NCBI GenBank assembly: GCA_000091205.1
Contig: AP006491.2
Source of the DNA: Cyanidioschyzon merolae
Taxonomy: Eukaryota
Length of the DNA stretch: 64,000 bases
Strand: one strand, 5' to 3'
Positions 2,429 to 64,000 of this stretch are shown one piece after another (positions within the stretch are counted from its first letter, which is position 1; each line of letters opens with the position of its first letter). The notes under the pieces are model-generated. The model was not told the DNA's origin, made no database searches, and saw nothing but the letters and a program-made list of their open reading frames with translations. The position numbers and the translations under genes were made by a program.

Positions 2429-2808
2429 GCTCTGCATACGGCATTTCGCTTGGGCTACTACTAACTGCGAGAGGCTTGCTGTCGGATGCGCGCTTTAGTG
2501 CGCTGCCCATGCAGAAAAGCTAAAAGACTGTATTCGCTCTTTACAGAGCTGACTGCTGCTCCTCGTGTGGTTCGTGGACCCTCTCGCTTCTCGGGCACGA
2601 GTGTCTGCAGGCCGCGCGTTGCACGTACCGAGAACAGAAAGCAGAACTGCTCGTTTGAGACGCTAGGCGCGGCAGGGAAACGAAAACAGTCGGCACTGTC
2701 CTGTGGTAGTCCCTGCTCCAGGGACTTTTGGCGGTGGCTCTTGAGCCAGTCCACAAACACTGAGCGTTAGCTACGAGAAAAAAGTGTGTTCTGGAAAGCC
2801 GGTGTAAA

Positions 2809-24370: not shown

Positions 24371-25531
24371 TTGGAGCAAGCGCGGGCACTGCGCCTAACC
24401 CTGCGCCTGTGTCGAGGCGCAAGCAGCCAGTCGCTGGTGCGGAGAAGCGCCCCGCGGCCCGGCCGACCGTTGAACGGAGCCGCTGATGCGGCCGTTCGCG
24501 GGCTGGAAGTCGCAGGGGAAGCGGCTCCACCTTCCACATTCGCAGCAAGCACCAGTGCGCCGGACGCCGAGCTGTTGCAGAGCCGCCAAACTCAGGTTGA
24601 GCAGCTGCGGCGCCAGGCTACGGACGCTGCGCTGCGGGGGCGTCAGTCATCGCGCCGGGCGCTGCAGCTTGCACGAGAGGCGCGAGCGATAGGCGTCGAC
24701 GTTACCATGAGGCTGGGCGAGCAGGACGAACAGCTGGATCGCGTGCAAAACGATCTGGACGAGATTCACGGCCACCTGACGCACAGCGACGAAATCATTC
24801 ACGACATGCAGAGTTTCTGGAAGAAGATGTGGCCTTGGGCGCGCGATCGGAATCGGCGGCACGAGCGCTACGCCCCGGTGCTGGGGGCAGACGGGCCCTC
24901 GACGTCAGCGACGCGGCACGAGATTGCATGCCTGCAGCGCCAGCGCGAGGCGGGGACACTGAACCTGCGGGAACGGCCGCCAGCTGCTTGCTCGTCTGAG
25001 CGTTCGGCGGATGAAGCGCGAGCAGCTGACGATGCGCAGGTCGGGTCATCGCCAGGGTCGGTACCGGCGCACGCGCTTCTACAGGACGCGGTGGATGGCG
25101 AGGCGGCGTCGCTCGATGGCGACAGCGAGCGTCGGCGGGGTCTGCTCTCGTCGCTGCGGCGCGTAACGCGGCGGGTACGCGGCGTCGACGAGCCCGAGGA
25201 CCGTGTGCGGCGCGAGCGGGCTGCGCTGCTCGCAGAGGGTACCGCTCCGACGGCTGCTGCTGGTGCTGCGGCAGCGTCGCCTGCGGACGCAACCGAATGC
25301 GCGGATGCGTCTGCGCAGGCCTCGGCGGCGCCGTGGGAAGAGCACGTTCAGGCACAGGATCGGGACCTCGACGAGCTGAGCGTTGTGGTGTCGGACCTGC
25401 GGACGCTTGCAGTTGGCATCGGAGAGCAGGTGCGCCACCAGAGCACCAAGATCGACGTGATTTCGAAGGACGTGGACTATGGGCGCGAGCGCATCCACGA
25501 GAATAACCGTCGCATTCGACGCATGCTCTAG
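24371..25531 (+). CDS. SNAP-25-family Qbc SNARE (two SNARE motifs). The start is uncertain because there is no in-frame ATG before the Qb motif.
   Basis: Qb motif LAREARAIGVDVTMRLGEQDEQLDRVQNDLDEIHGHLTHSDEIIHDM parallels SNAP-25 [33 protein letters not shown].... The C-terminal Qc motif is ...DLRTLAVGIGEQVRHQSTKIDVISKDVDYGRERIHENNRRIRRML. A long low-complexity linker separates the two. Confidence 0.65.
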   Translation: MEQARALRLTLRLCRGASSQSLVRRSAPRPGRPLNGAADAAVRGLEVAGEAAPPSTFAASTSAPDAELLQSRQTQVEQLRRQATDAALRGRQSSRRALQLAREARAIGVDVTMRLGEQDEQLDRVQNDLDEIHGHLTHSDEIIHDMQSFWKKMWPWARDRNRRHERYAPVLGADGPSTSATRHEIACLQRQREAGTLNLRERPPAACSSERSADEARAADDAQVGSSPGSVPAHALLQDAVDGEAASLDGDSERRRGLLSSLRRVTRRVRGVDEPEDRVRRERAALLAEGTAPTAAAGAAAASPADATECADASAQASAAPWEEHVQAQDRDLDELSVVVSDLRTLAVGIGEQVRHQSTKIDVISKDVDYGRERIHENNRRIRRML

Positions 25532-28500
25532 AGCTACGGATGTGGCGGCAGCGAATGCCGCCGCCACTGCCGCCGCCGCCGCCTGGACGCACGCACGCAC
25601 GCAGGTGTCTGTTCGTGTGCGCGGTGCGTGCGATCGAGGCCTGTATGTGAGGCCGGCGAGCGCTGCTGTTGTGTTTGACGGGAAGCGCGAAGCGCTGCAT
25701 GCGCGCAGCGCCTCATCGATCTCATCGAACGATGGACAGGCGCGCTTGCGCACTGTACGCCAATGCGGGAGATGGAGGATGAGCGGTGAGGCCAGGAGCG
25801 CCTCGGTGTCTTCGGGGTGCGTCTGGGGTGCAGAGCTGCGAGGCAAGCGGCTGGCGCGTCCAACGCGAGATCGTTGTGTGTCAGTGTCGGGCGTTTCGTG
25901 GCGTGACTTGGCGGTGCTTCAGGGAGTTATCCACGTGCGAGGTATCCGTTGTCGATCGGCGGAGGACGCTGGTTCTGGTTCGCGCTTCTCTCTGTGCGTC
26001 ACTGAGACAGGGGGCGGTACTGCATGGCATCGATATTTAATACCTGGATTGGCTGAATCACTTGAAATGAACTTCTGACCTGGCATTAGTCTGTGCGCCT
26101 CCAGTCCTGTTTGATAGACCATGATTGAATTGGATCCGATGTGAATGGGCAGAAGTGACTGACTCTATGAAGTTAATGATAAGACCTCACCCGCTGATCG
26201 AAGTTTTCGGTCAGTGAACACAGTATCTGTTCTAGCGGGGGGTCTTATGGGTTGAAATATACTCTGAGGAGTGAATTCCGGACCGAATGTAGCAGCACGT
26301 CCTCTTTGATTTTTATGTGTCTCTTTCGCAGGTATCCGACATAAGGAAAGTGTCACGCGGGCTGGAGAAAGGTCGCGGGACGTTTTATGCTGTTACTGCT
26401 AGTTTGCGAGAAAACATTCTTACTTGTCTATATCAGTTATTCAACGCTGAGTAGCTGGATAATCCACTCTTCTCGTCGTCCCTGTTCCGAACGTCGTGCA
26501 CCCAAAACGGTGCTTGACAGACGCGATCTACTCGACCCTATCATCGTCGATCCATTCTACGCCGTAACTTCTCTACGAAATGCGACTAGACAAGCCACAG
26601 GATGGCACGTTGCTGTACGGTCCGTGCGAACAGTAATGAAGTGCCACGGATGGATGAAGAACGAAGCGCGACTCTAGAGGAGAACACTGCGCGTTGAACA
26701 GCACGCCAGCGATTTAGCACGGAAACGCGAACGCGTATGCCGGGATTGACCGATGTTTGTCTCGGTCACCCTCGATGGGAGATTATGATGGGGGTCTATG
26801 TGGTATTCCTCCATATGCGTAATGCAAGACAGGGGCTAACCAGTATCCGTCAAGAAGAGACAAACAGCGTGCATGACAACGACACAAGTCCTACTGGCTT
26901 TGCTATCATCGTGTGGTCACTTCCATATCGCCAAACGGACTAGTCCGTTCAACACCTCGTGCACCATCGAAACAGTGTTTGGCTTCACCGCCTCACGCAT
27001 GCTTTTGTCCTGCTCTTTGACAACGTCGGTTTTCATCGCTCATGAGCGTTCAGGGCGCACACCGCTGGGGCTGCTGTTCAGCTGCGCTTCATACCAGCAT
27101 CGATATCCGGGTTCAAGGCAGTCGAAGGCGTCATCTGTGTTGCGGAGCGTCTTTTGCGGACTGGTGGATCAATAGACGAGTCGTTCGGATCTGTGGCCCC
27201 GTTCTTCGACGAATCTTTCTGTACGAGCCTCACCAGCGCTGAACAGCTCTGCTGCTCGTATGCTGTTGCGCAGCAGGGGGCGGAAAGGCGCGCGTCGGTC
27301 CGCGAGCACACTCGCGACAACGAAGGCGACCACGAGGTGCATAAGGAGAAATAGACGCACACGTCGATAGGAAGTGTGGGCTTCAATTCCGCCGCCCACC
27401 GTGTGCGTATGGACTCTCAGGGAAAAAACGTAGACGAACTGCCGCGAACGCCTGTTTGTTGTCGCACCAAGTTTCGGCGAAGGACAGGATACCAGGGACA
27501 CGGAGGTGAACGGTCCTCCAGAAGAGACGGCGAGCAGGTACCGGAAACAGACACCTCTGGAGCGGAAAGTCGAGTCTGAGCCGAACACCACGGCCGCAGT
27601 ACCGAACACACATCGTTTGGGAGGATCTCCCAGACAGTGCGGTGCAGGGTGCCTTGGCTAGTCGCGTGGCGTCTTTCTAGGATACGGTAGGCCTAGTGTC
27701 TCTCGCTTTGACGCCCCTCGTCAAGCAGTAGTTTGTTGGAGTTCCGGATGCGAGGCTGAGCTGCCAGCGATGCACATTCTGCGGGAATACTTGAATCCAA
27801 CCTTCGTGCGACGACACAGCTGGTACTCGGGACACAAGATGCACTGGGGCCTGATCGTGGAATCCGAGGACACCACAAACGCTTCCCAGCAAATACCCTG
27901 AGGTGTCGCTGCGCCAGTTCGGCGCTCGTGATATCGTCAGCGCAGGAGCAGAAACGTATGAGAAAATTACCGTCTAACGAACCGGAATCGTATGCGAGTC
28001 CGAGTCGAGCGCTGCATGAGGCGCATACTGTGTCCGTTGGGCCCGCTGTAGCTTCGCTTTACGAGTGGCGAAAATTGGGGACGGACACGAGCGGTATTTG
28101 GAGTGCGGCTGGAGACTGCGGACGAGCTGGCGGTGGCGGAAGAAGCCGAAGCTGTAGCGAGTGCGGAAGCGATCTCGCAAGGAGCGCGAGACTCGCTTCA
28201 GAGTGTCGGAGCATATCGAGTTAGTCTTGGCCTCGAGGTTACGGAAGTCGTACCTGGGGGCTGGTTGGAACGTGATGTCTGTCTGCGTTTCATCGTGGGG
28301 TAGAAGGTTTTCCGGAACAAAGCCCTGCAGAGCAAAGCCGACTACCTCATCGAGTGCGAGCGCCCTAGCCGCCTCAAGCATCTATCTGGTGTGATCCGCG
28401 TATCTCAGATCAAGGCGCATGACCGCACCGTAGACGCCCGTAGAGTGTATGACGGCAGGGATGAGCGACCACTGGTCTCTGAAGGCTGTGACGACACATG

Positions 28501-28754
28501 GAAACAGCTTTGCGAAGAGCGTCGGCCGATGTTGTCCAAAGCTTGTGGTTTGCAGGCAGGGCACGGGAAGCAGTTTACGGGGATGATGAAGTCCGACGGA
28601 ACATCAATCTGGGTGCGCTTTGTGAAACCTATAAAACTCTTGAAATTGTTGAAACCCGCGAAACCTAGATCTGTGCCGAGCAGCGATAATAATTCCGAGC
28701 CGTTCGAGGCGGATGAAGAGGACGACTCTGTAGCGGGCTTCGATTCTAGGTCGA

Positions 28755-29872
28755 GGTCGCTCGTAGTCGTTGCGGTATCTCCGAAAAGGAAGCAGACAGC
28801 GCCCAGATTCTGAACGGAAAACGAGTGACGCCGCTTAGTTTTTCCAGAGCTCATAATTCACGGGAGTCAGGTTCCATGGACAAGAGGAGTCATCCCCACA
28901 AATTGAATGACGGCATCAGGACCCGTTTTTGCGTGCCGAGCACCGTGCCGTGCAGAGGCGAATGCTCCGCACGCGGTTTTCAGAGCGTCCATGTGCGTGC
29001 GGACGACACTCAGCAAGCGAGCATGAGCATAATCATAAATATAAATAAGCTTGAGCACGAGCACGAGCACGAGCAAAAGCATGAGCATAATCATAAATAT
29101 AAATAAGCTTGAGCACGAGCTTGAGCTTGCACTGAGGCCGCCAACGATTTCGGTTGAACGGAGGCAAGCAGCGTGCACTCTCCTACTCTTTCACTGACTT
29201 GGCAACGTAACTGACCGATACTTCGCGTCGCGTGGTATGGTGGAGGTCGTGTATTGCGCGGCATGTTCTGTAGCACGCAATGGTTGCCCGCCTGCTCGCT
29301 CGATGGAGGCGCGCAACAAGTGGAGGCACCGATTCTGCTCGATTCTCGTTGATGCGCTCGGGACGGCATGTGTGCACGACGAGCACGAGTACACGCTGGA
29401 AAATATAGAGAGGAAGAGTGTGGAACGTTGATGGGCGCACGAGGTCTTGTGCGGGAAGTTTATCGAACGTCAGATGCCGAGCCAATCGCAGGCGTGATGC
29501 TCGCTATGATGCATCTCCATAAGCAAGGAGGCACGCGAGCACCCTCTGCACCACCGAGACGTCAACGCCTCGAAACAAGTCTGGAAATGTCTCGCGCTTG
29601 GGGACCATCCAACGACTGTGTGCTCGATGGAGCCTCCTGAGGGAGTCACTCTGCGCGCAGTGCGAGATTTGTGGTGAAACGCTGAGGAGCTCTGATGAAC
29701 AAGTCCGTGACCTGGAGAAAGGAGTTTTTTGATTCTCGCCTGGAGCAGAGCAGTGGTATTGAACTGTGCAGGAATGCAGAGAGCTCGGTATACCGCATAT
29801 TCAAGACCGCAACGGGTCTCCTGGGCAATTGTTGAAAGATAATGGTGGTCTGTTTGTCGATATCACAGAGTG
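28755..29872. repeat. Dispersed repeat family B, copy 1 (~1.1 kb). It is a direct repeat of 44915..46196 and contains a 2-unit minisatellite at ~29030..29135.
   Basis: Matching ORFs at +16150 to +16324 offset (28405..28854- N-terminus = 44807..45004-; 29183..29485- = 45507..45809-; 29237..29431+ = 45561..45755+). Boundaries were read from sequence divergence. Confidence 0.85.
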
Positions 29873-36781: not shown

Positions 36782-38913
36782 CTGGCTGGTGGCACCGCCG
36801 AACCAGCATATCGAATCGGTCTAGATGACCCAGCGCCTGGGGGCCTGTGTCCGCTGCAAGCAGCTGAACATTGACAGATTTTGGTGTGGATGCGAGAGCT
36901 TAAGCACACAAACCATTTCTGTGGAGTTCGCTTCGCAAGTCTAGCGAAAATGAACGGAGACTCCATATCTCTGCAGCGGCTTGGTGCAGTGACTCATCCG
37001 GCAGTCCGCGGGGCGTTCCAGTTACACCAGCCGCGTGCTGGAAAGGGTGCACATGGGCGAGCCGTCTTTATGGAGACGCTTTTTATTCACTCAAATGCGC
37101 GTTGGAACGCCGGAGAGGGTTTGCACGACGGCACCATTTCATCTTGGTGCATATGGACGGATTCTCAGAGAGATTCTGCGAAATTATTTTCATCGATGTT
37201 TCATGCTCGTGTTCGGAGCGCACACATGCATTGCTGGTACCGAGTTTCTGCGGCTGCGCATGCACTTATACGTTGCGAGCGTACAACATCATTGTGCACG
37301 GGCACATTCTTCGACATTGTGCGCCGTTTTCCTCTAGCATAGAAACATCTCGTCAAGTCGATCGTGAACGCTGACAGACATGCTTCATTTTGCATTGCTT
37401 TCATTCTATATTTTAATAATTTGGAACGAGTTAAAACTTGAATTTCAGGACCCGCTACCGTTGAACGGGTCAGCGAATACATCAGAAGCAGCGCGTGCCG
37501 CTACTTCGATGCGATCGCGGAGGATGAGCGCAGCTCAGCCTGAAACAGAGGCCCCGCACGACATGATGCGGTGGCAGGCTCGATCATAACAACGTGCTAT
37601 CGGGGCCTCGAAATGGTCTTATTTCGGACGCTCGGAATCGGAACCTAGACCCGGGAGCACGATTGCCATGACCATAATTTGACGCAGAGGGAGAGTTTCG
37701 ATTTGTGCCTTGTTCACTTTTCATGTGCGCCGCCGGGCGTGGCACCTTACTGGCCCGTGCACGCGATGGACACGCCTTGAATCGAGGCTCTGAATACTGA
37801 AGAAACCACGGACGCCTACTCGTGAGCGATGCGGTGAAAAGCTTTTGCATTGTGAACGTCTAGAATGGAGGTCATGCGCTGGCGGAAGCGTCCTTGATAT
37901 CAAGAGTGCTGCAGCATATATCTTCGCCCAGATTGCTGTCCGAAGCTTGCGTTTCAGGAACCGAAATGCTTCTCCGGCAACATCCATGTCTAGCGCTGCG
38001 TGGTGCCGGCGAGAATGTCGCAGTCGTCCGCTCGTACCATCAAGACAAAGAGCCTGTCGAGGCCCGTAATACTAGCGGATCCTGGTTCGTAGACTCGCGA
38101 CCAGTACCAAAAGTCAACGCTCTCGAAGACGCACCGAGGCTGCCTCGTTCCAGTGCGACAGGTGCGTCAAGCTTGGCGCCAGAAGTGCTATTGGTCGTAT
38201 CAAGCCTTGCATCCACGAGGATTGCTGCCCTGAAGCACAGATCTCGTTGAGGCATCCTTGAAGAAACGACGGTCTAATCTCTGGCAGACGGCAACAAGTT
38301 TGCTTTCGGAATCGTCTGATTCATGTCATCACGCATCCAGCATGGAAAAGAATGGACACGTACACAGACGCAATCCGCGGAAGCGAGCAGCGGGCAGCAA
38401 AGCTCCATCCTTGGTGTGCAGACACAGCACAGTTGGATCTTCCCATAGGGCGGGCTCAACGCATGCGCCCAGCGATTCACGGCACTGCATGCTGTATTTT
38501 TTTGTGGACAAAACGTTTACTTAGGCCAGCGTTCTCCGATTATGCGCTTTTTTCTTTTCTTCCTTTTTTGTGTGTTTTTCAGTGCGCGGTGAGGTATCCA
38601 TCAACCCCCTACTCCCATGTTCCATTACCTATACTTCGTCTCGGATATTCTGGTCGTTTCATACGTCCTATCGTGTGCCGAGCCTACCGAAAGCGACAGC
38701 AATAGCGCCTATAGCGCCGGTGCGGTCACTGCATGCTGTATGTGCGGCAAGTTACCGTTTGGATCGCATCCATCCCATATCAGACTAAAACTGTTAATAA
38801 TTAGATAAAGTGTATCAAATGGGAAACTCGGTCACTAAGCCGCGGCGCGCTCGAATTGGCGCGAAAACGCTCCGCAGTCGTTGCCGCAACATTTGGTTCT
38901 AACGCCAGTGGCC

Positions 38914-44914: not shown

Positions 44915-46196
44915 AGTCGTTGCGGTATCTCCGAAAAGGAAGCAGACAGCGCCCAGATTCTGAACGGAAAACGAGTGACGCCGCTTAGTTTTTCCAGAGC
45001 TCATAATTCACGGGAGTCAGGTTCCATGGACAAGAGGAGTCATCCCCACAAATTGAATGACGGCATCAGGACCCGTTTTTGCGTGCCGAGCACCGTGCCG
45101 TGCAGAGGCGAATGCTCCGCACGCGGTTTTCAGAGCGTCCATGTGCGTGCGGACGACACTCAGCAAGCGAGCATGAGCATAATCATAAATATAAATAAGC
45201 TTGAGCACGAGCACGAGCACGAGCATAATTCTAAATATAGACATAAGCACGAGCATGAGCATGAGCATAATCATAAATATAAATAGAAACATAAGCACGA
45301 GCACGAGCATAATTCTAAATATAGACATAAGCATGAGCGTGAGCATGAGCATAATCATAAATATAAATAGAAACATAAGCACGAGCACGAGCACGAGCAA
45401 AAGCATGAGCATAATCATAAATATAAATAAGCTTGAGCACGAGCTTGAGCTTGCACTGAGGCCGCCAACGATTTCGGTTGAACGGCGGCAAGCAGCGTGC
45501 ACTCTCCTACTCTTTCACTGACTTGGCAACGTAACTGACCGATACTGCGCGTCGCGTGGTATGGTGGTGGTCGTGTATTGCGCGGCATGTTCTGTAGCAC
45601 GCAATGGTTGCCCGCCTGCTCGCTCGATGGAGGCGCGCAACAAGTGGAGGCACCGATTCTGCTCGATTCTCGTCGATGCGCTCGGGACGGCATGTGTGCA
45701 CGACGAGCACGAGTACACGCTGGAAAATATAGAGAGGAAGAGTGTGGAACGTTGATGGGCGCACGAGGTCTTGTGCGGGAAGTTTATCGAACGTCAGATG
45801 CCGAGCCAATCGCAGGCGTGATGCTCGCTATGATGCATCTCCATGAGCAAGGAGGCACGCGAGCACCCTCTGCACCACCGAGACGTCAACGCCTCGAAAC
45901 AAGTCTGGAAATGTCTCGCGCTTGGGGACCATCCAACGACTGTGTGCTCGATGGAGCCTCCTGAGGGAGTCACTCTGCGCGCAGTGCGAGATTTGTGGTG
46001 AAACGCTGAGGAGCTCTGATGAACAAGTCCGTGACCTGGAGAAAGGAGTTTTTTGATTCTCGCCTGGAGCAGAGCGGTAGTATTGAACTGTGCAGGAATG
46101 CAGAGAGCTCGGTATACCGCATATTCAAGACCGGAACGGTTCTCCTGGGCAATTGTCGAAAGATAATGGTGGTCTGTTTGTCGATATCACCGAGTA
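44915..46196. repeat. Dispersed repeat family B, copy 2 (~1.28 kb), with the minisatellite expanded (~45170..45455, ~5 units of ~55-60 bp).
   Basis: Same evidence as copy 1. The extra ~174 bp relative to copy 1 lies entirely in the AT-rich/(CACGAG)n tandem array. Confidence 0.85.
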
Positions 46197-52668: not shown

Positions 52669-54783
52669 TCATACGGTAAGGATACCAACCCGCCGCGCCC
52701 ACCAAAACATACACAGAATCGTGAGCGGCACCGTGAATGCCGTGATTGCCACAAAGCCGATGAACCACGAAGCATTGGTGCCGTAGATCGGCAGTTGCAG
52801 ATTCATGCTAAAGAATCGATTCACAACACCAGCGCCAGCGAAGACACAGGTCAGGACGGTCATTAACACACTGATGCGCAAAAGGCGATTTCGCATCGAG
52901 TCCAGTTGCAGATCCACTAAACCCTCGGTATCATCGATGGTGGCACCGAGGAGCCGTGCTCGGCCCGCCAGATAGTCCAGCACCCGCAGGTACGACTCGA
53001 GCAGCTCCTCCACCTGTGTGTGGGCTTTTGTCGGGCGCTCAGTGTCGGGGTGCTTCCGCATTTCGGTTAAATACATTCGAGCCATATCTTCGTCCTCGCT
53101 GAGCAGGTCTTGGAGCGCGTCTCGCACTCCGTCTACTCGAGATGAAAAGTTGCTCAACATTTGCTTCAAATAGAGCATTTCTTCCAGCTTCCTGCCGCTG
53201 ATCTTGTGTGTCAACTCATTCAGGAGGCGCGTGAGACTCGGCTCGATACACGCGAGATCTCGTTCGAGTGCGACGCACACCTCGATCAAAACGGATTCCA
53301 GCGCGTGAAGTTCAAAGGGAATCTCCTGTTCCTCATCACTCTGGGCAGCGATGAGCCGCTCTTCGATGGATCGGGCACTCTGACGCACACTCTGATCATT
53401 GGGATTGAAGAGCAACATATGATCAGCGAAAATGACGGCGCGCAGATGCGCAAGACTCACAATGATCACATGTCGCCGTACGAGAATAACGGGCCGCGGT
53501 TTTGTGGTCGGATGGATTTGTCTCAGGTCGCGGCTTTGAAGGATACCACGCAGCTCAGCCTGGAGCTTTCTGCGTTCCTTCTTGCGCTGTCGCCATACCG
53601 CGTGATGAAGCGTCTCTTCGGACTGGGAGTCTGCTGGAATGCAGTTGGCGCTGCTCGGTGCACGGATCTGATCGTTCGCCCGCGCTGCCGCCAGAATCTC
53701 TGTTGTGGTGATTTTCTCAACCGTGGCATGTCCGTTAAACCCAAACCGGAAACAAAGCAATGTGTTCAGGGCGCGTTTTGGTTTCTTTTGCTCGGCAGGA
53801 GTGTGTTGTCCAAATCCGGCGTATGGTGTTGTCGCGATGGGTTCCGGCGCCTGGCCCCGAGCACGCCCGCTAGGGCGCAACGTCGGTGGCTGCGGAAACT
53901 CCTCATCGTGGCTGTCGCGGTGCTCAGGAGACACGTTTTCCGCACTCGAGGGCAGCGCGCCTTGTCTACGCTCACTTACAGGCGAATCCTCCGCACGGCC
54001 AGAATCTCTGTACAAGTCCCGCTCGTTCGTTGTAAGCGCTCCGTGCAGGTTCGTCTCGTGTTCGGGTCCGGAACTACTGCTAGGTTCAGCGTTGTCTGGG
54101 CGTTCGCGTGTGTGCAAGCTATCCGGGGTCGCGCGTTGCGTCGCACGCTGCAACAAAAGTTGGTTGCGAATCGACTGCTGAAAGAGTTCCAGAGTCTGGT
54201 TTCGAGATCGGAGGCCCTCGAGCGCACCGCTCGAAAGAGAACGTCGGAAATTCGTTTCCTTCGACGAGTACAGTCCCGACTCTGGAGCAGGCTCGAAAGG
54301 TTCCGCGGCAACTGGTGGCGGGCCAGTCTCGAGCAGGGGCGAAGAACCCGCCACCGCCACCGTCACCGCGGACTCCCGAGCGTTCGCCTCGCTCTCGGAG
54401 CAAGGTGGCGCCGGGTGCAAAATCGTCTCATCGTCCAGGCCTTCAGAAGCGTTTAGCGGTAGAATGGGAACTCCACCGTCGCTTTCAGAGTCTGACGCTT
54501 CCATGTTGCCGAGGCGCGAGCAGCGTGTGCCCGAATGCCAACCTCGATGCGCCAGCAGCCTTGCATAGCCGCATTTGGAGCAGGGGCAATGGAGCGGGCG
54601 CGAGGGCCGGGCATGTAGACGAAGCTGCATATTTTGGGACTCTGTGGACAGGGTAGCATACAGCTGATCGTTCTGCTGCGGCACGACAGCGTTGCTGGAC
54701 TTGTGAGCACTGGGCCTTAGGCAAACAGCGCTATGCGCATGCACGTGGGTGCACAGCACCGCAAACCCATGAAAAGACTCCAT
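52669..54783 (-). CDS. Mrs2/CorA-family transporter, paralog 2, with the signature altered to SMN.
   Basis: ATG at 54783. C-terminal ...LMTVLTCVFAGAGVVNRFFSMNLQLPIYGTNASWFIGFVAITAFTVPLTIL. It is co-linear with paralog 1 (DEDMARMYLTEMR; LHALESVLIEV ~ FVALEALLMAT). The Ser codon AGC was read directly on the minus strand at ~52805..52807. The true start may be an internal ATG, since the N-terminus is low complexity. Confidence 0.65.
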   Translation of the reverse strand: MESFHGFAVLCTHVHAHSAVCLRPSAHKSSNAVVPQQNDQLYATLSTESQNMQLRLHARPSRPLHCPCSKCGYARLLAHRGWHSGTRCSRLGNMEASDSESDGGVPILPLNASEGLDDETILHPAPPCSESEANARESAVTVAVAGSSPLLETGPPPVAAEPFEPAPESGLYSSKETNFRRSLSSGALEGLRSRNQTLELFQQSIRNQLLLQRATQRATPDSLHTRERPDNAEPSSSSGPEHETNLHGALTTNERDLYRDSGRAEDSPVSERRQGALPSSAENVSPEHRDSHDEEFPQPPTLRPSGRARGQAPEPIATTPYAGFGQHTPAEQKKPKRALNTLLCFRFGFNGHATVEKITTTEILAAARANDQIRAPSSANCIPADSQSEETLHHAVWRQRKKERRKLQAELRGILQSRDLRQIHPTTKPRPVILVRRHVIIVSLAHLRAVIFADHMLLFNPNDQSVRQSARSIEERLIAAQSDEEQEIPFELHALESVLIEVCVALERDLACIEPSLTRLLNELTHKISGRKLEEMLYLKQMLSNFSSRVDGVRDALQDLLSEDEDMARMYLTEMRKHPDTERPTKAHTQVEELLESYLRVLDYLAGRARLLGATIDDTEGLVDLQLDSMRNRLLRISVLMTVLTCVFAGAGVVNRFFSMNLQLPIYGTNASWFIGFVAITAFTVPLTILCMFWWARRVGILTV

Positions 54784-57096
54784 GTGAACTGAGGTGTTGG
54801 CAAGAACAAGACTAAAAGTAAGAGCGTCTGCGAAAGTCCGCTGGGTGGAAGCCTCTGCCCACCGAGCGATCGAGAAAACTGCAAGAGGGATGCGGGCCTC
54901 CGTCGCGCTCTACCTGCACGCACCGACAACCGGGGCGGTGCTTCGCTAGACGAGCGGGTGGAGCAGCGGCGCGCTCGATGTCGCAACACACACAGACCAA
55001 AGCATGCTGTATCCGTTAAGCGCTAGGAATTTCGTATGCACGTTCAGATGCCAACATGTCGCGGGGTGGTAGAGTCGAATGCGCTGCTGGCCGGACGGCA
55101 CAGCATCGCCGCATGATCGCGGAAACGGCGACGGCCAGCAGCTTCAATCTGTAACCTGTCTCCGTTTTGATGAATTCGCGCCAACTTGCAACGAGTTTCT
55201 GTTCTCTTTAAGCCTATGATAGAACAAAACGGAACAGGTTGTCCAATTCGCAGGTACACGCAAAAATTCTGGGTCTCCTCCCGCTGCGATCAACGCTGGC
55301 ATTTTAGGGTATTATTCGGGGTCCGCTTCCTTTTCCTCTCTAGTCTCCGGTTCAAAATACGCTGGACTCTTCTGTCACTCCTGCGCCGTGCTCACCATTC
55401 GAAGGACGCTGATGGCAGCGTGAGAGCACCGATGTCGCTGGATATGGCTGTTGTCGACTCTTTCCATGAAGAGACGGGAGCAGCGGTCGACCTATCGCTT
55501 GCAATTCTCGGCTTTATACACAGCCTGTCGATGTGCGCTTCGCAGCGGTGATACAAGAATGTGGAGAGGTGATTCTACATGTCCACTACATGTCGTCCTC
55601 CGGGGGCCACTATGCGACATACGAATGCTTGCTTGATCGCTCGGTACATGGCCTTGACGGGTACAGAAGGCGCCGCTCGATGCCCCACGCCATAACCGTG
55701 CCCGATGCGGTTCGCGACGATCACGGGCTTCATCTGGAGGATGTCTTCGAACATTACTCCGGTCGCTGTACGTAGAAGCGCACACTGTTCAACTAGATTC
55801 AAGATCTGAGGAACGCGATGTTGTTCATGTTGCAGCGAGTACCGGAAAGAGAATGCGTGTTGGAGAATACGTCGAGAGATTGACATGCCTCTAGGTTCCA
55901 GTCGCGTCAATCGGCGACCTACGATTCAACGTTAGAGAGACAGCTGCGATAACACAAGCCGAGTCCGCGACCATTTTCGATGCAAAAAGAAACAACGGGA
56001 GTCTCTCGAAGCATAACTCGTGCGGCCTAACATGCTACTTCCGTCGAATGCCGCTCCGTAGCTTGCCAAAAAAAGACAAGGATTCGGCTCTCGATTCTCT
56101 GACGTGAGACGCTCGATGAACTTCCGCAACGCACTTGTAAAGAATGCGTCAAGGGGCGTTGTCTGCTTTTTTTCTTCGTCAGTCGTGCAATACGAATTGC
56201 AGCGCCCACGAGTTGCATTGAAAGACGTAGATAGAAAACTGAACTAATGCGAGATTTGAGCGTGCTACACGTAAGTAAAGAACAAGTCTGGAGGCTTTTT
56301 AGTACGCTTTGGGTAATCATATCGGTTCGTTTACGCACCCTTTCTCAAGCGCGTCATGAATCAGCTTGATTCCGGTGACCTAACGGATTCCGGTGCGAAC
56401 GAGTCGCAGGAGCCACTTCGCAAAGACAACCGAGAATCCTAAAAGTACCCACGAACCAGTACACTCGTAATAGTGCATGTCGTACGTCGAGGCTGTACAT
56501 CTAAGAAATATAGGTCGGAAAAATTCGAAAGATGGGAAGGAATCGAGCTGCTCCGTGTTTCATTCTAATCTGGCATGGCTGCAGCGGGGAATCGCTCACG
56601 GTTGCGTGCCTTGTATACGGCGCTCATCGTCAGCTGACATCGACACGTGCCCTATGACGACAGCGGCCTTGGCGCGGGCACGAGCTCGGGACCCTCTCGA
56701 CTATTCCTTGAAGGCATTCTCGCACAAGCAGGCAAGGTCCCCTGGCGTAGTGTCATCAGAGCATTCACTACGTATGCCGTGCGGTATGACGCAGGCGCTG
56801 CGACGTGCGTGCTCTGCCTGCGTTCCCCGAAATGCAGGCCGGGAGGCGCGCTCGCGGATCGCCAGTAGCAGCACAGCAGCGTCTCACCGTTGTTGTGCTG
56901 TCCAAATATATCTTATTTATTACATGATTGATCTCTAGCGTTCAGGCTGCATCGTTGCCGCCGTCGACCTCTTCGCCATAAAGGCGACCGCAACGCGCGA
57001 AACTCGGCCAGCACCCGCCAGGAGCTGCAGTCCCAGTAGCCGAATGCTGTCTCTTGATCGCTACTATCCAAACAAAAACAGTGGTCGTTTTTTCTG

Positions 57097-57687
57097 ATGC
57101 GCCAGCGCGGATCGTTCGTTCGTGGTGGAGCGTTCTCAGCGCGAGCGACAGGGCGCGGCCACGGCGGTGCAGGGCGCACTAGCCGTGCCGCAGATCCCGC
57201 GGACGCGGACCTCCTGTGCTTCGGAAGTTTCGTTCATGCCTGCGAAGGCGAACTTGTATACAAAGCGATCGTACCGGATAAAGTTCCGTATTTCAATGCG
57301 CCGATTTTTCTCGAGAACAAGGCGCAGATCGGACGCGTGGAGGAAGTTTTCGGTCAACTTAGTCAAGTTATGTTTAGCGTCAAACCTGTGCCGGGTGTAA
57401 TTCCTGAGAGCGTTCGGCCTGACGACCGAGTCTACATATCTAGCAATAAACTCCTACCCGCTGCTGTGTTTACCAAGAAGGGACAGCAGGGCAACGCCTC
57501 AGGTGGCGCAAAGGCGAAACAGCGCAGGCCACTGAGGACACCCGCGACCCGCGGCGGGCGTGGCGGCTCTCGGCCATATCGCGGACGCGGCGGTGCCATG
57601 AGCACTCGGGGTGCGGGCTTTCGTCGACCGTCGTCCAGCTTTAGTGGTGGTGGTGGTGGTATCTCAAAGCGCCCGTACCGCCGGTGA
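57097..57687 (+). CDS. GAR1: H/ACA snoRNP subunit GAR1.
   Basis: ATG at 57097. Core ...FVHACEGELVYKAIVPDKVPYFNAPIFLENKAQIGRVEEVFGQLSQVMFSVKP... closely parallels the GAR1 core ([49 protein letters not shown]). It is flanked by Gly/Arg-rich GAR tails. Confidence 0.85.
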   Translation: MRQRGSFVRGGAFSARATGRGHGGAGRTSRAADPADADLLCFGSFVHACEGELVYKAIVPDKVPYFNAPIFLENKAQIGRVEEVFGQLSQVMFSVKPVPGVIPESVRPDDRVYISSNKLLPAAVFTKKGQQGNASGGAKAKQRRPLRTPATRGGRGGSRPYRGRGGAMSTRGAGFRRPSSSFSGGGGGISKRPYRR

Positions 57688-58149
57688 TATGGTGAAGCGG
57701 GCTCGCGATGCGTCTGTCAAGAACGGCGCTCAGCGTCTGTGCGTATTCCACGTATGTGCCTGTGCCTGCCGTGCAATCCCTCGACGCATAGGATTTTGCG
57801 TGACAGGAAGCGTGCGGTCTCGGACAGGAAGCATCGACGCAGACGAGGAATATCTCCTTCTCTTACGCAGGACAGCTTCCCGAAGCATCCAGGACTCTTG
57901 TGGGGTCTGAGTTCCAGCACCCGCGATTCGACTTTGCGAACAGACCTCGACGTGTGTCTCGACACGAGCGGTGCGGTTGCACTGCTGATGCTGGTTGCTG
58001 AAACACGCGCTGTCCCAGTTGCTCGAGAATGCTCTCATTTACGCCTATCCATTTGATCGGTGATATACTCGATATGCCAGTGTTGCGCATTGTTCGGTGC
58101 GTTTTGCAGAATACCTTTCGAAACGTTCATGGAATTCGGGTTCACCTGA

Positions 58150-59924
58150 TCAACCACGGGCGATTCCTTCGACGAACTCGACAAGCGTACGAGTAGGAAC
58201 ACCTGTCGCCATGCTCTGCTTCTCATTCCACACGGTTCCCGCGATATCCAAATGTGCCCAGGGGACTTCCTTTTTCACAAATTCCTGAAGGAAGAGGGCG
58301 GCGATAATTGCCCCGCCCCATCGACCTCCTGTGATATTCTTGAGATCGCTAATTTTGCCCTTCAGTCCCTCGCGGTACTCAGGTGCAAGTGGCATACGCC
58401 AGACGCGCTCGCCGACAAGTTTGGCGGCAGAATCCAGCCGTGCGGCGATATCATCATGAGCGGTCCACATGCCCGAGTACTCCGTGCCGAGCGCGACAAT
58501 GCAGGCCCCGGTCAGCGTCGCAATGTCGACCAGGGCATCCAAGTTAGGAATATTCTGCTGGGCGTAGAGAAGTGCGTCCGCCAGCGTTAGGCGACCCTCG
58601 GCATCCGTATTCAACACTTCAATGGTTTTCCCATTGCTCGCCGTTAGAATGTCCCCGGGATGGTACGCTTTCCCCGAGATCATGTTTTCACAGCATGCCG
58701 TAATGACGGAAAGCTCTAAATTGGGCGGCTCCAATGCCATGATGGCCTTCATCGTGCCGAAGCAAGCCGCCGCGCCGCCGCAGTCGAACTTCATCAGTTC
58801 AATCATCGAGCCGGCGGTCTTGAGGTTGTAACCGCCAGTGTCATGCGTTATGCCCTTACCAACGAGACACACGCGCTTTTGAGTCTTTCCCGGTGTCACG
58901 ACGGGTGAGGTATATTTCATATGGATAAACTTGGGAGGGAGCTCAGAGCCCTGGGCAACTCCTAGAAAAGCGCCCATGCCGAGGCGCTCGCAATCCTCCT
59001 TCTCGAGGATGGTGCAGGTTATCGATCCTCGGGAGCTTTCGGCGAGGCTCCTTGCGGTTTCCGCGAAGAACTCCGGCGTCGCTACGTTTGGTGGCGCGTT
59101 CACGATCTCGCGCGTGAGGATAACGCCGCTGGCCATCGCTTCGCCGCGCTTCACTGCGGTCTCGTCCGCACCGAGGAGATCGATGAAGGCACCGCTGGGT
59201 TTCGTTGCTGCGCCCTTTGTCGCGCCGTCCTCTTCCTCCGATGAACGGAATCGATCATCGGTAAAAGCTGCGAGCAGAACGGCTTCCGCGAGGCGCTGCG
59301 TGAGTACTTCCGGCGCTAGCGATGCCTTTCCTTGCGGCGAAGCGATGACGACGCCCAAACGATCCGGTTGGGAGCTGTCGGATTTCAACTGCGTGCTCAC
59401 AAAGGCACCAAACTGTTCAAAATATCAGTGTTGAAGTCGTCGTCCTTTCCAAGACAGTAAACGGCCACGCGCCGCACTCGCACGGTGATGGTATTGCTAT
59501 CTCCCAGCACCAGGAGGTGTGTTGTGACAGAGCTTCCGGACTTTAACCTCGGCTCCGCGTCTTCAACGAGCTTTTTCACGATTCGAGCAAGATCTGGGCC
59601 CAGTAAACGATTCGCCCGTTCAGAAAGCTCGTATATCGTGGCACCAGTTCCGCCGCTGGCACTGGATGCACTGCCAGCCGCAGCGCCACGGGTCAAGTCA
59701 GCCGAGAAGAGGCCAATGACCAAGGTTTCCCCTTCGAAGGCGTGCGAGCCCTCCGACGGCAGCGGTCTCGCTCTCAACGTCGGTAGTTGCCGTCGCTCGG
59801 ACGCCGGCCTCGGTCTCGTGGGTACAGTCATAGCCAGTGATCGGATAGGCGCAAATGGAAAGACGCTTCGCCGAGCAGCGGGACGCAAACGAGCTCTCTC
59901 CCAGCACGGCCCAGCCACAAACAA
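58150..59924 (-). pseudogene. M17 leucyl aminopeptidase split into two frames (N-domain ORF 59397..59924; catalytic-domain ORF 58150..59400). This is either a frameshift or an assembly error.
   Basis: The catalytic domain has ...NAPPNVATPEFFAE..., ...VCLVGKGITHDTGGYNLK..., and the signature NTDAEGRLTLADAL. The upstream ORF has an N-domain-like ...ETLVIGLFSADL...AVYCLGKDDD.... The two frames overlap without stops only across 59397..59424, which is too short for an intron. Confidence 0.7.
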
Positions 59925-60705
59925 ACAATTGCAGAGTGCGTCCCCTTTGGTGCTAGGGCGAAAACCAGCGATGAATTCCTGTCCGGAAGCAACGTTGCAA
60001 CAGGAAAGATAAACCTATTGAAACGAGTCGCTGCTTCATGGGAGCGATAGCTTCAGCAGCGGGCGCAGCTGCCTCCAGCGACGACGCCCTGGCGCGCATC
60101 GACGCGCTCTGTTGGCCGCGGCGTTGCAGCGCTGCTGCCGATCCGGCCGTCGGTTCGTGAAGGCGTTCCCGGGGGGGCGGTGCGCGCGGCGCGGCTGTGC
60201 AGCATCACCGCGATGCATTTCCCTAGGAGCGGGGCTAGTCGAGCGAGCCTGTGTGTGAACGGTGTATGCGGCTGTATACTTGTCGTGTGGTTGCTCTTTG
60301 ATAGGGTCGAACCGGTGTCGTGACAGTTGCTGGTACGGCTTTTCGTGCATTCGTTTTCGTGCAAAAGCACGGTCTGATTTGGCTCAATTCTCCTGCGTGC
60401 TGTGTGATCATAGGCAGTGAGCGTGCTGGAACGAGGCAGGGCAACGGAGGTGTAGCGCACGCGAGGCTGGGCGGTGTGCTCGGTGCAGCCGGCTCGATAC
60501 CCTGGGGTGGCGAAACTATTAAGCTGTTGGAGCACGGTTCTCTGTTCTGGACTATCCGAACGCACGCGGGAGCTGTCGGGCTCGAGCGGGAAACTTTTTG
60601 AGCTTGGGAACTGCGAAAATGGCCATACGGCTTTCCTGAACCTGTTGCAGTAGAAGTTTGTACTGAACGCAGTTGAAGCTTGAAACAGACATCGTTTCTA
60701 GCAGA

Positions 60706-61458
60706 ATGCGGTTTGCCTGCTGGGAGCGACTCCTCGCAAGCGCGAGACAGTCTGTGAACGTGCTTACGTCCGCTCGAGGTACGCGGTTTTGTCACAGACG
60801 TGCCTTCTCTGGACGCATGCCTGTCGGTTGGGACACAACGGCACGCAAGGCACTTGCGATGAACGACATGTTTATGAGGTTTCGTTTTCAGTATCGGAGT
60901 GGCGCTATGTACAGTTCCTTCTCGACATCACAAGGAGAAACCCTATTCAGTGCAGAGCGAGTTTCAGACGCAGCAGTCTGGCGACGACGTCTGGAGCAGC
61001 GTCGGCGCCGACAGTTTTACAGCGCGTTGGGCGGCGTTGTTGGCGCAGCGTTGATGACGTTCGCGGTGATAAAAACAATGGAAGACAGCATGATCTTCTT
61101 TTACACGCCGACGCAAGTATTGGAAGAATTGCCGCCAACAACTGCAAACAGACGGATGCGTCTGGGCGGGCTGGTTGTCAGCGGTAGCCTGCAGCGCCAT
61201 GGCAACGGAGATGTTGAATTTGAGATCACGGACTTGGAGAACGAAGTTCTTGTCACGTTTAATGGGTTTCTACCAGACTTGTTCCGCGAAGGTCAGAGCG
61301 CTGTGGTTGAAGGATATATTTTGGAGCGGGAGAACGATGGACGACCGCTGCGATTCAAGGCCACTAGCGTCCTTGCAAAACACGATGAGAAGTACATGCC
61401 GGCTCAGGTTCGCAGTATGCTGGAAAAGAACCGGCCGACTCGCAGTGACACGCCCTAG
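60706..61458 (+). CDS. ccmE: Cytochrome c-type biogenesis protein CcmE (system I heme chaperone) with an N-terminal presequence. The ORF track starts at 60673 with TTG; the first ATG is at 60706.
   Basis: TM anchor YSALGGVVGAALMTFAVI, then FFYTPTQVLE...RMRLGGLVVSGSLQR...FEITDLENEVLVTFNGFLPDLFREGQSAVVEGYIL...ATSVLAKHDEKYMPAQV. This is co-linear with bacterial and plant CcmE, including the heme-binding His in LAKHDExY. Confidence 0.85.
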   Translation: MRFACWERLLASARQSVNVLTSARGTRFCHRRAFSGRMPVGWDTTARKALAMNDMFMRFRFQYRSGAMYSSFSTSQGETLFSAERVSDAAVWRRRLEQRRRRQFYSALGGVVGAALMTFAVIKTMEDSMIFFYTPTQVLEELPPTTANRRMRLGGLVVSGSLQRHGNGDVEFEITDLENEVLVTFNGFLPDLFREGQSAVVEGYILERENDGRPLRFKATSVLAKHDEKYMPAQVRSMLEKNRPTRSDTP

Positions 61459-62082
61459 TGTCGACATCTCGCACTCCATGAAAGCTTAAATGCACAAGAG
61501 CACGGGAGAAGGAAGCAGCGTGAACCCCGAATGGTGAGCATTGCGTGCCGCTACTGGCGTTCTGCTGCTATGGAGCCAAATCCGCAGCCACGGAACCTAT
61601 TCCGGCTGCATCCTCTGAAACATATGTCGCTCACACAGCACTAGTTCTCAAGGAGAGGCCTGCGTCCTCAAACAGCGACAGCGCGTATTTTCTTAGAAAA
61701 CATCCGGACTTTCGACTGATCAGCACCGCGGGATCGCTGGCGAACTGCTGGTATTCTGCGCCCGGCTTGATCGTTATCAACTGCATCCGCAAATCTCTTT
61801 ATTCGATGTGACGCCATGCGTAGAGCAGTTTCAAATAGGAAACTTTGCGGATACCTAGAGTAAGCCGAAACTTGTTGGGCGTATTCGCGCAGAAAATAGC
61901 GGTATCCAATGCTTTCAGGGCTGTAATCTTTCAAGTGTTTCTCAGCGTGGCTTCAGAACGACAGGAATATGCAGGGCAAACGAATGATTAGGGTTGCAGA
62001 GCACAAGGAAAGGCCTCTGTGCTGTTTCCGCTGTGCGTGGATGCCTCGCGCACGGGCCATGCTTTCCGCGCCGACGCAAACA

Positions 62083-62574
62083 CTATCGTTCGTCGCGGGT
62101 CACCGCTGTCGCACTTGTTGGAGAAAACGGCGTATTTTCCTCGTCACGCACTGGAACCGAACGAACCACGTTTGGAATCGCTGGCGCGACGCTCCCAGAC
62201 GCAACAAACTTGATGGGAAACCTTCGAAAGGCTCCGCAAATTTTGCAGTGAAGCACTAGTCGTTGTCGGCGAACGCGTACAAACGTGTTTCTTCCAGGTT
62301 GGAAGATGCTGCCACAGCGCTTACAGGTGTGCCGCTTGACATTCTCACAGTCCAGTTGAAGGTTCACCCTCGTAGCGATCTTTCGCATGAGCAGCACATA
62401 CGAGCGCGAGACCGCCGATAGGCTCTGTTGCAACGCCCTGGCAGCGCGCCACAAGTGTGCGACTCGGGCTTCTGCATCCCGTGAACGAGTGTTTTTGTAG
62501 TTGTTCTGCTTGTTCTGCTTGTTCTGCTTGTTCTGCTTGTTCTTCTGGGATGAAGAAGAGCATTGCTTCGCCAT
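62083..62574 (-). CDS. RNase P/MRP protein subunit Rpr2/Rpp21 (zinc-ribbon) with an N-terminal (KQN)n repeat.
   Basis: ATG at 62574. ...VAHLWRAARAL...SRSYVLLMRKIATRVNLQL...KRHTCKRCGSIFQPGRNTFVRVRRQRLVLHCKICGAFRRF shows the Rpr2 pattern with two CxxC pairs. The N-terminal QKNKQNKQNKQNKQNN is encoded by the (CTTGTTCTG)5 9-bp tandem repeat at ~62500..62550. Confidence 0.55.
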   Translation of the reverse strand: MAKQCSSSSQKNKQNKQNKQNKQNNYKNTRSRDAEARVAHLWRAARALQQSLSAVSRSYVLLMRKIATRVNLQLDCENVKRHTCKRCGSIFQPGRNTFVRVRRQRLVLHCKICGAFRRFPIKFVASGSVAPAIPNVVRSVPVRDEENTPFSPTSATAVTRDER

Positions 62575-62767
62575 GCAGTGTCCCTACTGAGCGGACTAGA
62601 AGCGGCAGTTTTCAAAGCGTCGTTGGTGGTCACAGCGAAACGCTGTTCGAAAGTCGCACGTCGCCGACCGTGCACGGTAGTAGCGGGAAACGCGCGTTCG
62701 ACATAGCGTTTCCAGCTGACGTGTAGACGCCTCCCCGTCTTTCTCGACCGGCCACCGACTACTGGTT

Positions 62768-63997
62768 TCAACTTTTTCTCATATAGTTCCACTTTGAGAG
62801 GTTGCCCCACAAGTCCGCTCTTGTCGTCTCTGGAGGTCTTCTCTCCAGCACCGCACATCTCCTTACATTGATAGCGGCATTAAAGTCAAGATTCACGAAC
62901 TCCATACGTTTCTTGCCATCGTTCGTTGTACTTACTAGTGCAAGTAGCCCTCGCACTTTCGCCCTCCTTTCCATTTGCTCTTCGGTCAGCGGTCCGTACT
63001 TTTTTATATCCTCAGGGCTCCGCTGACACTTTTCCATCTCGACCCTTTGAAGTGTACATCCCAGTTCATGGTGTGTATAGGATGTTCGGAACTCATCTAC
63101 AGTTACTGTGACGAAACGCCATGCACACTCTTTGTACGTTCTTGTCGTTGGAGCTGGTGTAGTTCCTTTTTGGGTCATCAAGCGCCCTGCTCCGTACGCT
63201 ATTACAAGCCTCTGACTTTAATCCTCCTTCAAGGCGCTCAACTCATTGAAACAATTCACGAATGAACGCTGCTTCTGACAATACAAGTTCATACGCAGAC
63301 GAGCCCACCGGGGCTTTGTATACTCTTTCCACAGGGCATCCCAATGCGCCATGCGAACTTCCATGAATTTCCAAAAAGCATCAAGGTCCGCTCCTCGGCT
63401 CGTCACCTCGCTCAAAGCTTCCAGGTGCTCCTTCATTCCTGCATTCCATGTCTCAGTTTTTTTCCTTGCATTCATGATTTCCGATTCTCGATCGTATCTC
63501 GCTCTCGAGAAGCTCAAAATTCGCATGTCTTTCTGACGTAAGTTACCATCAGTATCATCTTCCACACGCCTGGGCAAAGCGATGGTTATGATATTTGTGT
63601 TTCCAGGGTCCGCGTCAACGACAAGGTCGTTATGCTCCACCTCCTGCGTCGCAAGTTCCGCTTCCTTCTTATCTTCATGCTTCGCCGCGGCAGCCATACA
63701 GTCGTTATCCTCCACTTTCTGTGTGGCAGGATCCGCCGTCTTCATATCTTCATGGTTCGCCGAGGACGGAACTGGACGATCTCTCTTCAACCGCCGATAG
63801 TGTATACACAAGGCTACTCCATCGGTTTCGATCAACCCAGTAAGTACCTTTTGTTTGCTGGCTTTGAGACGTTTGAAATCGAAGAGACTCTTCCAGTACG
63901 TCTCCCGGTTTTCACCGGAGAATTCCTCCCTGCTAACACTGAACTCCGGACTGATCCCCTTCATGATGCCGTAAAGGATTCTGGAGTCGACAGTCAC
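62768..63997 (-). mobile_element. TnpB/Fanzor-like RuvC-fold nuclease ORF (IS200/IS605 OrfB superfamily). It is truncated by the window edge and split by a frameshift, so it is probably a decayed transposon-associated gene.
   Basis: Downstream ORF 62768..63181 has RuvC-II-like ...VTVDEFRTSYTHH... (DE.[YF]TS, cf. TnpB EAYTSQxC) followed by RuvC-III-like ...VNLDFNAAINVRRC (D.NAAxNI). Upstream ORF 63218..63997 has a RuvC-I-like [16 protein letters not shown] followed by helical spacer segments in TnpB order. The frames differ between 63181 and 63218. The zinc-finger Cys pairs are degenerate. Confidence 0.5.
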
Positions 63998-64000
63998 AAA

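Follow-up and report, generated by a model that had tools for sequence, protein, structure and literature searches.

What is the broken, nuclease-like gene at the end of a 64,000-nucleotide stretch of Cyanidioschyzon merolae strain 10D chromosome 9 (GenBank assembly GCA_000091205.1, contig AP006491.2; "the window" hereafter), directly upstream of the gene for the RNase P subunit Rpr2? An original prediction, made from the letters of the window, had found three RuvC motifs in TnpB order on the minus strand and had taken them for a decaying Fanzor transposon copy whose 3' end adjoins Rpr2. The minus strand from 64000 to 62631 very probably represents the 3' two-fifths of one copy of CMe-1A, a Fanzor1 transposon without terminal inverted repeats (TIRs). 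Fanzor1 and Fanzor2 are eukaryotic homologues of TnpB, and CMe-1A was described as one Fanzor1 family of C. merolae, with ~150 copies that are each ~80% identical to a 3169-bp consensus (Bao and Jurka, 2013, Mobile DNA 4:12, PMC3627910). The family has no TIRs, and its target site duplications (TSDs) were not determinable; its sole open reading frame (ORF) encodes CMe-1, a Fanzor1 protein of 734 amino acids (aa), no Y1 or Rep/helicase transposase is associated with it, and its 5' 635 bp are common to another repeat, TE-N2_CMe (PMC3627910).

The assignment rests on colinear similarity to the CMe-1A consensus, which was taken from the supplement of the 2013 paper (PMC3627910), at an identity within the published range of ~80% for copies: blastn aligned consensus positions 2116-3145 to the window with 87.3% DNA identity over 1030 nt, and positions 1869-2196 with 84.1% over 328 nt. 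At the protein level, residues 322-700 of CMe-1 and the translated window ORF share 314 of 400 positions (79%, BLASTP), which is far beyond chance. As had been predicted, the ORF is cut by the window edge at 64000, beyond which the 5' part of this copy lies. Related copies, whose existence the original prediction had proposed to check, are numerous: 206 close proteins were found, at least 517 related stretches were confirmed in metagenome contigs, and five further Fanzor1-like remnants lie within the window itself. The gene is hosted by a multi-copy mobile element, and the object is a known transposon family, described in 2013 and present here as a pseudogene. The mildly new points are at the family level only, namely a clade without the zinc finger and a structured, sense-biased 3' end. 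The parts of the copy that bear on its identity are the following:

62631..64000, minus strand: 3' 1.37 kb of a CMe-1A copy, consensus 1869 to ~3169 (blastn to the consensus; 3' limit from a covariance-model match).
62768..64000, minus strand: disrupted Fanzor1 frame, equivalent to residues 322-700 of the 734-aa CMe-1 (one frame throughout).
63578..63625, minus strand: 16-residue RuvC-I motif, with the Asp of DPG at 63608-63610 (invariant D in alignment A1, see below).
63185..63211, minus strand: canonical RuvC-II beta-strand RLVIAYGAG, in which Gly replaces the catalytic Glu of TnpB (rearranged Fanzor site, PMC10530073).
63080..63100, minus strand: VDEFRTS, with the shifted catalytic Glu at 63092-63094 (invariant E in A1).
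62864..62893, minus strand: RuvC-III motif NLDFNAAINV, with the Asp at 62885-62887 kept and Arg changed to Leu at 62888-62890.

The three motifs thus stand on the minus strand in TnpB order, as originally proposed. The original prediction had placed a frameshift at 63181/63218, which is not what the sequence holds: ORF 63218..63997 and ORF 62768..63181 share one frame, and a single TAA separates them. This frame, from 64000 to 62768, is 94% identical to P0001, a protein from the syntenic locus discussed below, and is broken only at that codon (context …LSALKED*SQRLVIAYGAG…). An exhaustive phmmer search with P0001 gave 1138 cluster representatives at E<=1e-3, many of them 600-700 aa long and 30-41% identical, among which are proteins from green algae (Tetrabaena socialis and Haematococcus lacustris). 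When a profile of 20 P0001 relatives (A1) was searched against the PDB with hmmsearch, it matched three Fanzor1 proteins of solved structure: PpFz1 of Parasitella (9cf0, E=6.7e-20), SpuFz1 of Spizellomyces (8gkh, E=5.2e-14), and GtFz1 of Guillardia (9cer, E=3.5e-4). The invariant D (in DPG), E (in vDEfRT), and D (in nRDlNAA) of A1 fall on positions 777, 935, and 1000 of 8gkh_P, which become D383, E541, and D606 of SpuFz1 after subtraction of the maltose-binding protein (MBP) tag offset of 394. These residues, together with N385, coordinate two Mg ions in SpuFz1 (Saito et al., 2023). In the window, the RuvC-I Asp sits within DPG (DADPGNTN), a motif that is itself a Fanzor signature (Yoon et al., 2023), and the Glu lies ~35 residues downstream of the VIAYGAG strand; a Glu shifted ~40-45 residues C-terminal of an inert canonical RuvC-II, before [TS][TS], is another such signature (Jiang et al., 2023, PMC10530073). 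DEFRTS, which had been read as RuvC-II-like, holds the shifted Glu typical of Fanzors and is not the canonical position, which is VIAYGAG with its Gly. Because the profile matches exist and the motifs align to D/E/D, the window ORF can be regarded as homologous to Fanzor1, with its catalytic triad aligned to the Mg ligands. Together with CMe-1A membership, these matches uphold the claim of a Fanzor/TnpB-superfamily gene in a eukaryotic nuclear genome.

Two of the features that had been taken as signs of decay are real but have another meaning. The window ORF has no CxxC pair between the Glu motif and the RD motif, as had been noted; among 123 relatives that carry both motifs, however, none has two CxxC in this interval and 120 have none at all. 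The clade conserves at most one Cys, that of 'LLWC', and the C. merolae copies lack even this one. Since the whole clade is without the two CxxC, the loss of the zinc finger is a clade-wide trait and not decay of the window copy. Likewise, the tandem duplication is present, at coordinates close to those first given:

63608..63757, minus strand: two tandem 75-bp (25-aa) units, 63683-63757 and 63608-63682 (direct comparison, 55/75 identical).

The second unit ends inside the RuvC-I strand, and Tandem Repeats Finder (TRF) gave no report of the duplication. Because the number of units varies across the family, from one in the consensus to at least five, and copies with long predicted proteins are included in this range, the repeat is a family trait and no sign of decay.

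The lesions that do mark the window copy as dead are of other kinds, and two of them can be placed as follows:

63218..63220, minus strand: in-frame TAA nonsense codon (GAA, Glu, in the metagenome copy L001, introduced below, and in the family consensus).
62700..62813, minus strand: C-terminal tail of the family ORF, out of frame, with the stop codon TAG changed to GAA at 62697-62699 (pairwise alignment to the consensus; P0008 tblastn).

What shifts the tail is the loss of 1 nt near 62812, common to L001, and the apparent stop codon at 62768 is a product of this deletion. In its absence, the family frame would run on (GQPLKVELYEKKLKPVVGGRSRKTGRRLHVSWKRYV) to 62700; an alternative-frame ORF (62364..62858) overlaps the tail. 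Moreover, the Arg of the RuvC-III motif, kept in L001 and in the consensus, is Leu in the window copy (RD→LD), and several pairs of its 3' terminal hairpin are lost. On account of the nonsense codon, the deletion, the lost stop codon, the Arg to Leu change, and the degraded hairpin, the window copy is an old, fixed pseudogene, unable to encode the full protein, and the original diagnosis of a decaying transposon copy holds for these reasons.

The part of the copy beyond the window was recovered from L001, a metagenome contig of the JGI, which is 99.0% identical to window positions 52766-64000 over 11.2 kb and extends past the window edge. L001 represents the same locus in another strain and supplies the missing 5' part. 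The extension beyond 64000 that had been suggested thus yielded the 5' part, but TIRs, for which it was also meant, are not a feature of the family (PMC3627910). The N-terminal 140 codons in L001 contain frameshifts and a stop, and the 5' module at this locus differs from the TE-N2_CMe-like one of the consensus. Within the ORF (62750-64000 versus L001 2312-3560), 42 of 1233 sites differ (3.4%), as against ~0.7% in the remaining ~10 kb, i.e., 5-fold less; the differences in the ORF are clustered (e.g., 14 changed codons in 62866-62932), with a ratio of nonsynonymous to synonymous differences (pN/pS) of 0.47. The clustering suggests patchy (ectopic) gene conversion from paralogs as its simplest reading.

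For the family as a whole, the ratio of nonsynonymous to synonymous substitution rates (dN/dS) against the consensus was determined over the last 303 codons of 80 distinct copies from metagenome contigs, the best 80 of at least 517 by protein similarity, a choice that biases dN downward; the median is 0.20 (range 0.10-0.36) at a dS of ~0.34. Only 11 of the 80 copies are without a stop or frameshift in this segment. The low dN/dS and the few unbroken copies therefore indicate that most of the divergence built up while purifying selection was acting, presumably in active lineages, and that most present copies were broken recently. Across loci L001-L082, at least four alternative 5' modules are found upstream of consensus position ~650 (5' ends at ~600-730), and TE-N2 is sometimes inverted beside the Fanzor unit (L072, L078). 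Because copies carry these alternative modules, the published 5' 635 bp seem to be one member of a set of pieces that are interchangeable or were inserted independently. At the other end, the ORFs of L009, L016, L020, and L024 stop at Gly700 by a CAA→TAA/TAG change (consensus ~3006), before the 34-codon tail. This tail overlaps the predicted 3' RNA structure and may be conserved for RNA or DNA structure rather than for protein.

How the element ends was seen from an alignment of the 3' ends of 73 copies, whose homology continues ~65 nt past the stop codon and then ends abruptly. The last ~41 nt form a long hairpin, such as CACCGTTGGCGTCGTTCGA-CTT-TCGAACGGCGTTGATGGTG with 19 pairs, and the flanks diverge directly after its 3' arm; three copies (L069, L006, and L002) have quite different sequences at the hairpin site, yet also long hairpins. 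A covariance model of the hairpin (R1) gave 62 instances in the loci and, in the window, only the expected match at 62672-62631:

62631..62672, minus strand: terminal hairpin, degraded, at the 3' end of the element (R1 match of 49.4 bits, a score that is partly by construction, as the window hairpin was a seed of R1; non-standard pairs marked).

The minimum free energy (MFE) fold of the window hairpin is without the long stem of the other copies. A different description of this site, hairpin B with a 10-bp stem and a conserved 'TTGATGGTG' flank, was rejected, as folding puts the flank in the 3' arm of the longer stem. The model match places the last base of the element at 62631, which leaves 56 bp to the Rpr2 ATG. 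The ~190 bp that had been given for the upstream gap are too many, because the frame reaches 62700 and the element continues to 62631.

Whether the 3' end might encode an omega-RNA, as had been suggested, was addressed by folding. The window copy folds with z=-1.2, whereas 200 nt at the 3' end of L034, a copy with less decay, reach z=-4.5, with a local hairpin, a long-range helix of CAGTAGT.GGTGGC in the coding part with GCCACTACTG in the 3' untranslated region (UTR), and the terminal hairpin. The 195-nt tails of 36 distinct copies have a median z of -2.1 (from mononucleotide shuffles), and in 35 of the 36 the sense strand folds more stably than its complement. For the terminal segments, 166 G·U pairs were counted in sense folds versus 58 in antisense folds, and sense was more stable in 43/55. 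In the 195-nt structure, 88% of cells are paired, compared to 39-59% in slid controls, and 4 of 500 shuffles reach 88%; RNAalifold, run on the gappy 73-sequence alignment including flanks, predicted no structure. This strand bias, to which base composition may contribute, speaks for an RNA with the sense of the ORF, as with the guide RNAs of Fanzor and TnpB. By analogy to these systems, an omega-RNA role of the ~195-nt 3' region is plausible in live members.

The neighbour on which the element abuts is described by two features:

62575..62630, minus strand: 56-bp spacer between the element end and the Rpr2 start codon (coordinates; flank compared with L001).
62083..62574, minus strand: Rpr2/Rpp21, RNase P subunit gene, directly downstream (Pfam PF04032, E=1.9e-14).

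With the element ending 56 bp upstream of the start codon, the 5' control region of Rpr2 lies within or right beside transposon sequence. The arrangement of element and Rpr2 is the same in L001, with ~99% flank identity, so the insertion is old and fixed in both strains sampled. Within the Rpr2 coding region, a perfect 9-bp tandem repeat (TTGTTCTGC, 4.8 copies) at 62501-62543 encodes a (KQN)n run near the N-terminus.

From the characterised Fanzor1 and TnpB systems, a mode of action can be proposed for a live CMe-1A member. It would be transcribed through its own 3' end, and the last ~175-195 nt of this transcript, i.e., the ORF tail and ~65 nt of non-coding sequence ending in the ~19-bp hairpin, would act as the omega/fRNA scaffold, with the guide provided by the DNA that directly follows the element; in the window copy, the guide would fall in 62575..62630, were this copy active. 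The protein might then cut matching DNA by the Asp of DPG, the shifted Glu of DEFRTS, and the Asp of RD.NAA; such nuclease activity of live members is inferred from the characterised systems. The broader picture, which is held tentatively and at less than even confidence, is that the CMe-1 clade of red and green algae and metagenome contigs is a Fanzor1 lineage that works without a CCCC zinc finger and with a 3' scaffold of ~175-195 nt whose last part is a long, G·U-rich hairpin at the exact element boundary, that in C. merolae it operates in a thermoacidophile, with copies kept similar by purifying selection on active lineages and by gene conversion among copies, and that the window copy is a dead member ending in the Rpr2 5' region.

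Several results weigh against the main reading, that of a CMe-1A copy with a Fanzor1 gene and an omega-RNA in live members, and have to be set beside the rival explanations. The CCCC zinc finger that is missing from the clade is treated as conserved by Bao and Jurka and in the SpuFz1 structure. The repaired translation of the window protein has no match in Pfam or NCBIfam, six close homologs have no relevant Pfam match, TnpB models included, a phmmer search of the PDB with the CMe-1 consensus protein gave noise only, and an AlphaFold2 model of P0001, built on a 40-sequence, low-diversity alignment, was unusable (mean predicted local distance difference test, pLDDT, of 41; predicted template modelling score, pTM, of 0.28). 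Only one of 82 related loci has an ORF of at least 600 aa with all three motifs, and most or all of the family may by now be extinct. For the RNA, covariation is weak: the covariation score of the 195-nt structure, itself derived from the same alignment, is reached by 32 of 500 shuffles, that of the terminal hairpin is no better than shuffles, and Rfam at permissive thresholds has no match in 61800-64000. If the unmatched Pfam, NCBIfam, and single-sequence PDB searches stood alone, the motifs could be a chance resemblance, or the ORF could belong to an unrelated family with a RuvC/RNase H fold. The chance of this is negligible, and the idea is already refuted by the 79% identity to a published Fanzor1 protein and by the profile matches to three solved Fanzor1 proteins, with catalytic residues aligned. 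A profile is needed to see the homology to the solved proteins. The search of HMM libraries that had been advised failed on the repaired translation; a profile of the clade finds solved Fanzor1 proteins. PF07282 remained below threshold in one distant relative (18.5 bits against a cut-off of 26.3, E=0.002), and the precomputed label, DUF8286, is graded weak. It is also very improbable that the gene is still functional, encoding an active Fanzor1 with the TAA as a sequencing error, a strain polymorphism, or a read-through codon. The GAA of L001 at this codon, the retention of all three D, E, D residues, and a dN/dS of 0.19 for the window copy against the consensus would agree with a functional gene. 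They are opposed by lesions that are independent of the TAA (the 1-nt deletion common to L001, the lost stop codon, the RuvC-III change, the degraded hairpin, and the broken N-terminal codons of L001), and the pN/pS of 0.47 with its clustered changes is unlike purifying selection at this locus.

Having set these aside, the reading of the window copy as a dead CMe-1A member leaves two questions about its 3' end. The terminal hairpin could be a DNA-level transposition signal, like the sub-terminal hairpins of IS200/IS605 or the 3' hairpins of Helitrons, which we regard as a serious alternative, if a somewhat unlikely one. It lies exactly at the element end, where the flanks immediately diverge, the covariation is not significant, the family is without TIRs and detectable TSDs, and Chlamydomonas Fanzor1 elements are tagged Helitron-like in the table of Bao and Jurka (PMC3627910); yet no Y1 or Rep/helicase transposase accompanies the family, and the strand asymmetry in G·U pairs and stability fits an RNA from the ORF strand, even if a G+T-rich sense strand could contribute to it. 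The DNA role and the RNA role of the hairpin are not mutually exclusive. The other question is whether the dead element was co-opted, so that the essential Rpr2 gene takes its promoter or 5' UTR from the 3' end of the element. This is doubtful, and more so than the DNA signal: the short distance to the ATG on the same strand would suit co-option, as would the persistence of the arrangement in a second strain, which speaks for an old and tolerated insertion, but intergenic regions are short in the window generally, and proximity alone is weak evidence.

Compared to the published CMe-1A, the window copy comes from the same organism and family, with 84-87% DNA and 79% protein identity and likewise no TIRs; it differs from the consensus in its two 75-bp units instead of one, its truncation by the window edge, and its lesions. 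SpuFz1 (8GKH), PpFz1 (9CF0), and GtFz1 (9CER) share with CMe-1 the Asp of DPG, a shifted Glu within DE[FY].TS, and the RD Asp, as well as a long N-terminal/REC extension, a multi-copy transposon context, and probably a structured, conserved 3' region that overlaps the ORF end. In contrast to the CMe-1 clade, the solved Fanzor1 proteins have a CCCC zinc finger in the NUC/TNB region, and Spu-1 has 30-nt inverted repeats (IRs), whereas CMe-1A has no terminal ones. The TnpB proteins of IS200/IS605 and IS607 elements (ISDra2 TnpB, and the rearranged 'TnpB2'/pro-Fanzor) have RuvC in three motifs in the same order, and their elements are likewise without TIRs or TSDs and have a structured right end, from which the guide RNA would be expected by analogy. 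CMe-1 differs in its eukaryotic nuclear host, ~330 extra N-terminal residues, the shifted Glu, and the lack of a TnpA partner, and Pfam TnpB models score below threshold on its relatives.

The locus itself matters little, as it holds one dead copy among ~150 of a family catalogued in 2013. That a Fanzor is recognisable from motifs alone is shown by the original prediction, in which the signs of decay needed correction: they are the nonsense codon, the 1-nt deletion, the Arg to Leu change, and hairpin decay, not zinc-finger loss or the repeat. More can be gained from the family-level points, i.e., the zinc-finger-less clade, the dN/dS of ~0.2, and the structured, sense-biased 3' end, which were uninterpretable in 2013, when the RNA-guided function of Fanzor was not known. 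C. merolae is an acidophile growing at 42-50 °C, and these points could guide tests of a Fanzor from such an organism.

Elsewhere in the window, further traces of Fanzor1 are present. A 2.4-kb inverted repeat (24-2437 / 6146-8560; arms 98-99% complementary and ~3.7 kb apart) holds a decayed, divergent Fanzor1-like remnant in each arm (209-1194, minus strand; 7435-8453, plus strand), 29-42% identical to CMe-1-family proteins and with AVNANRAM in place of the DEFRTS Glu motif. Two more remnants, at 27817-29623 and 44924-45947 (both plus strand), are 26-36% identical to family proteins, with P0195 as the best match, and neither site has an ORF of at least 250 aa. These two suggest that, besides the single family CMe-1 of 2013, C. 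merolae harbours one or more further divergent Fanzor1 lineages. An internally deleted CMe-1A-like remnant at 14624-15265 (plus strand) joins consensus 786-969 to ~2809-3088 at ~69% DNA identity, and the covariance model gave no terminal hairpin there. A 104-bp fragment at 38608-38711 (plus strand) is 81% identical to consensus 84-189, i.e., to the TE-N2_CMe-like 5' module. Finally, 22001-26000 is a GC-rich island, with 63-67% GC compared to ~55% elsewhere in the window, in which long ORFs overlap on both strands (24371-25846).

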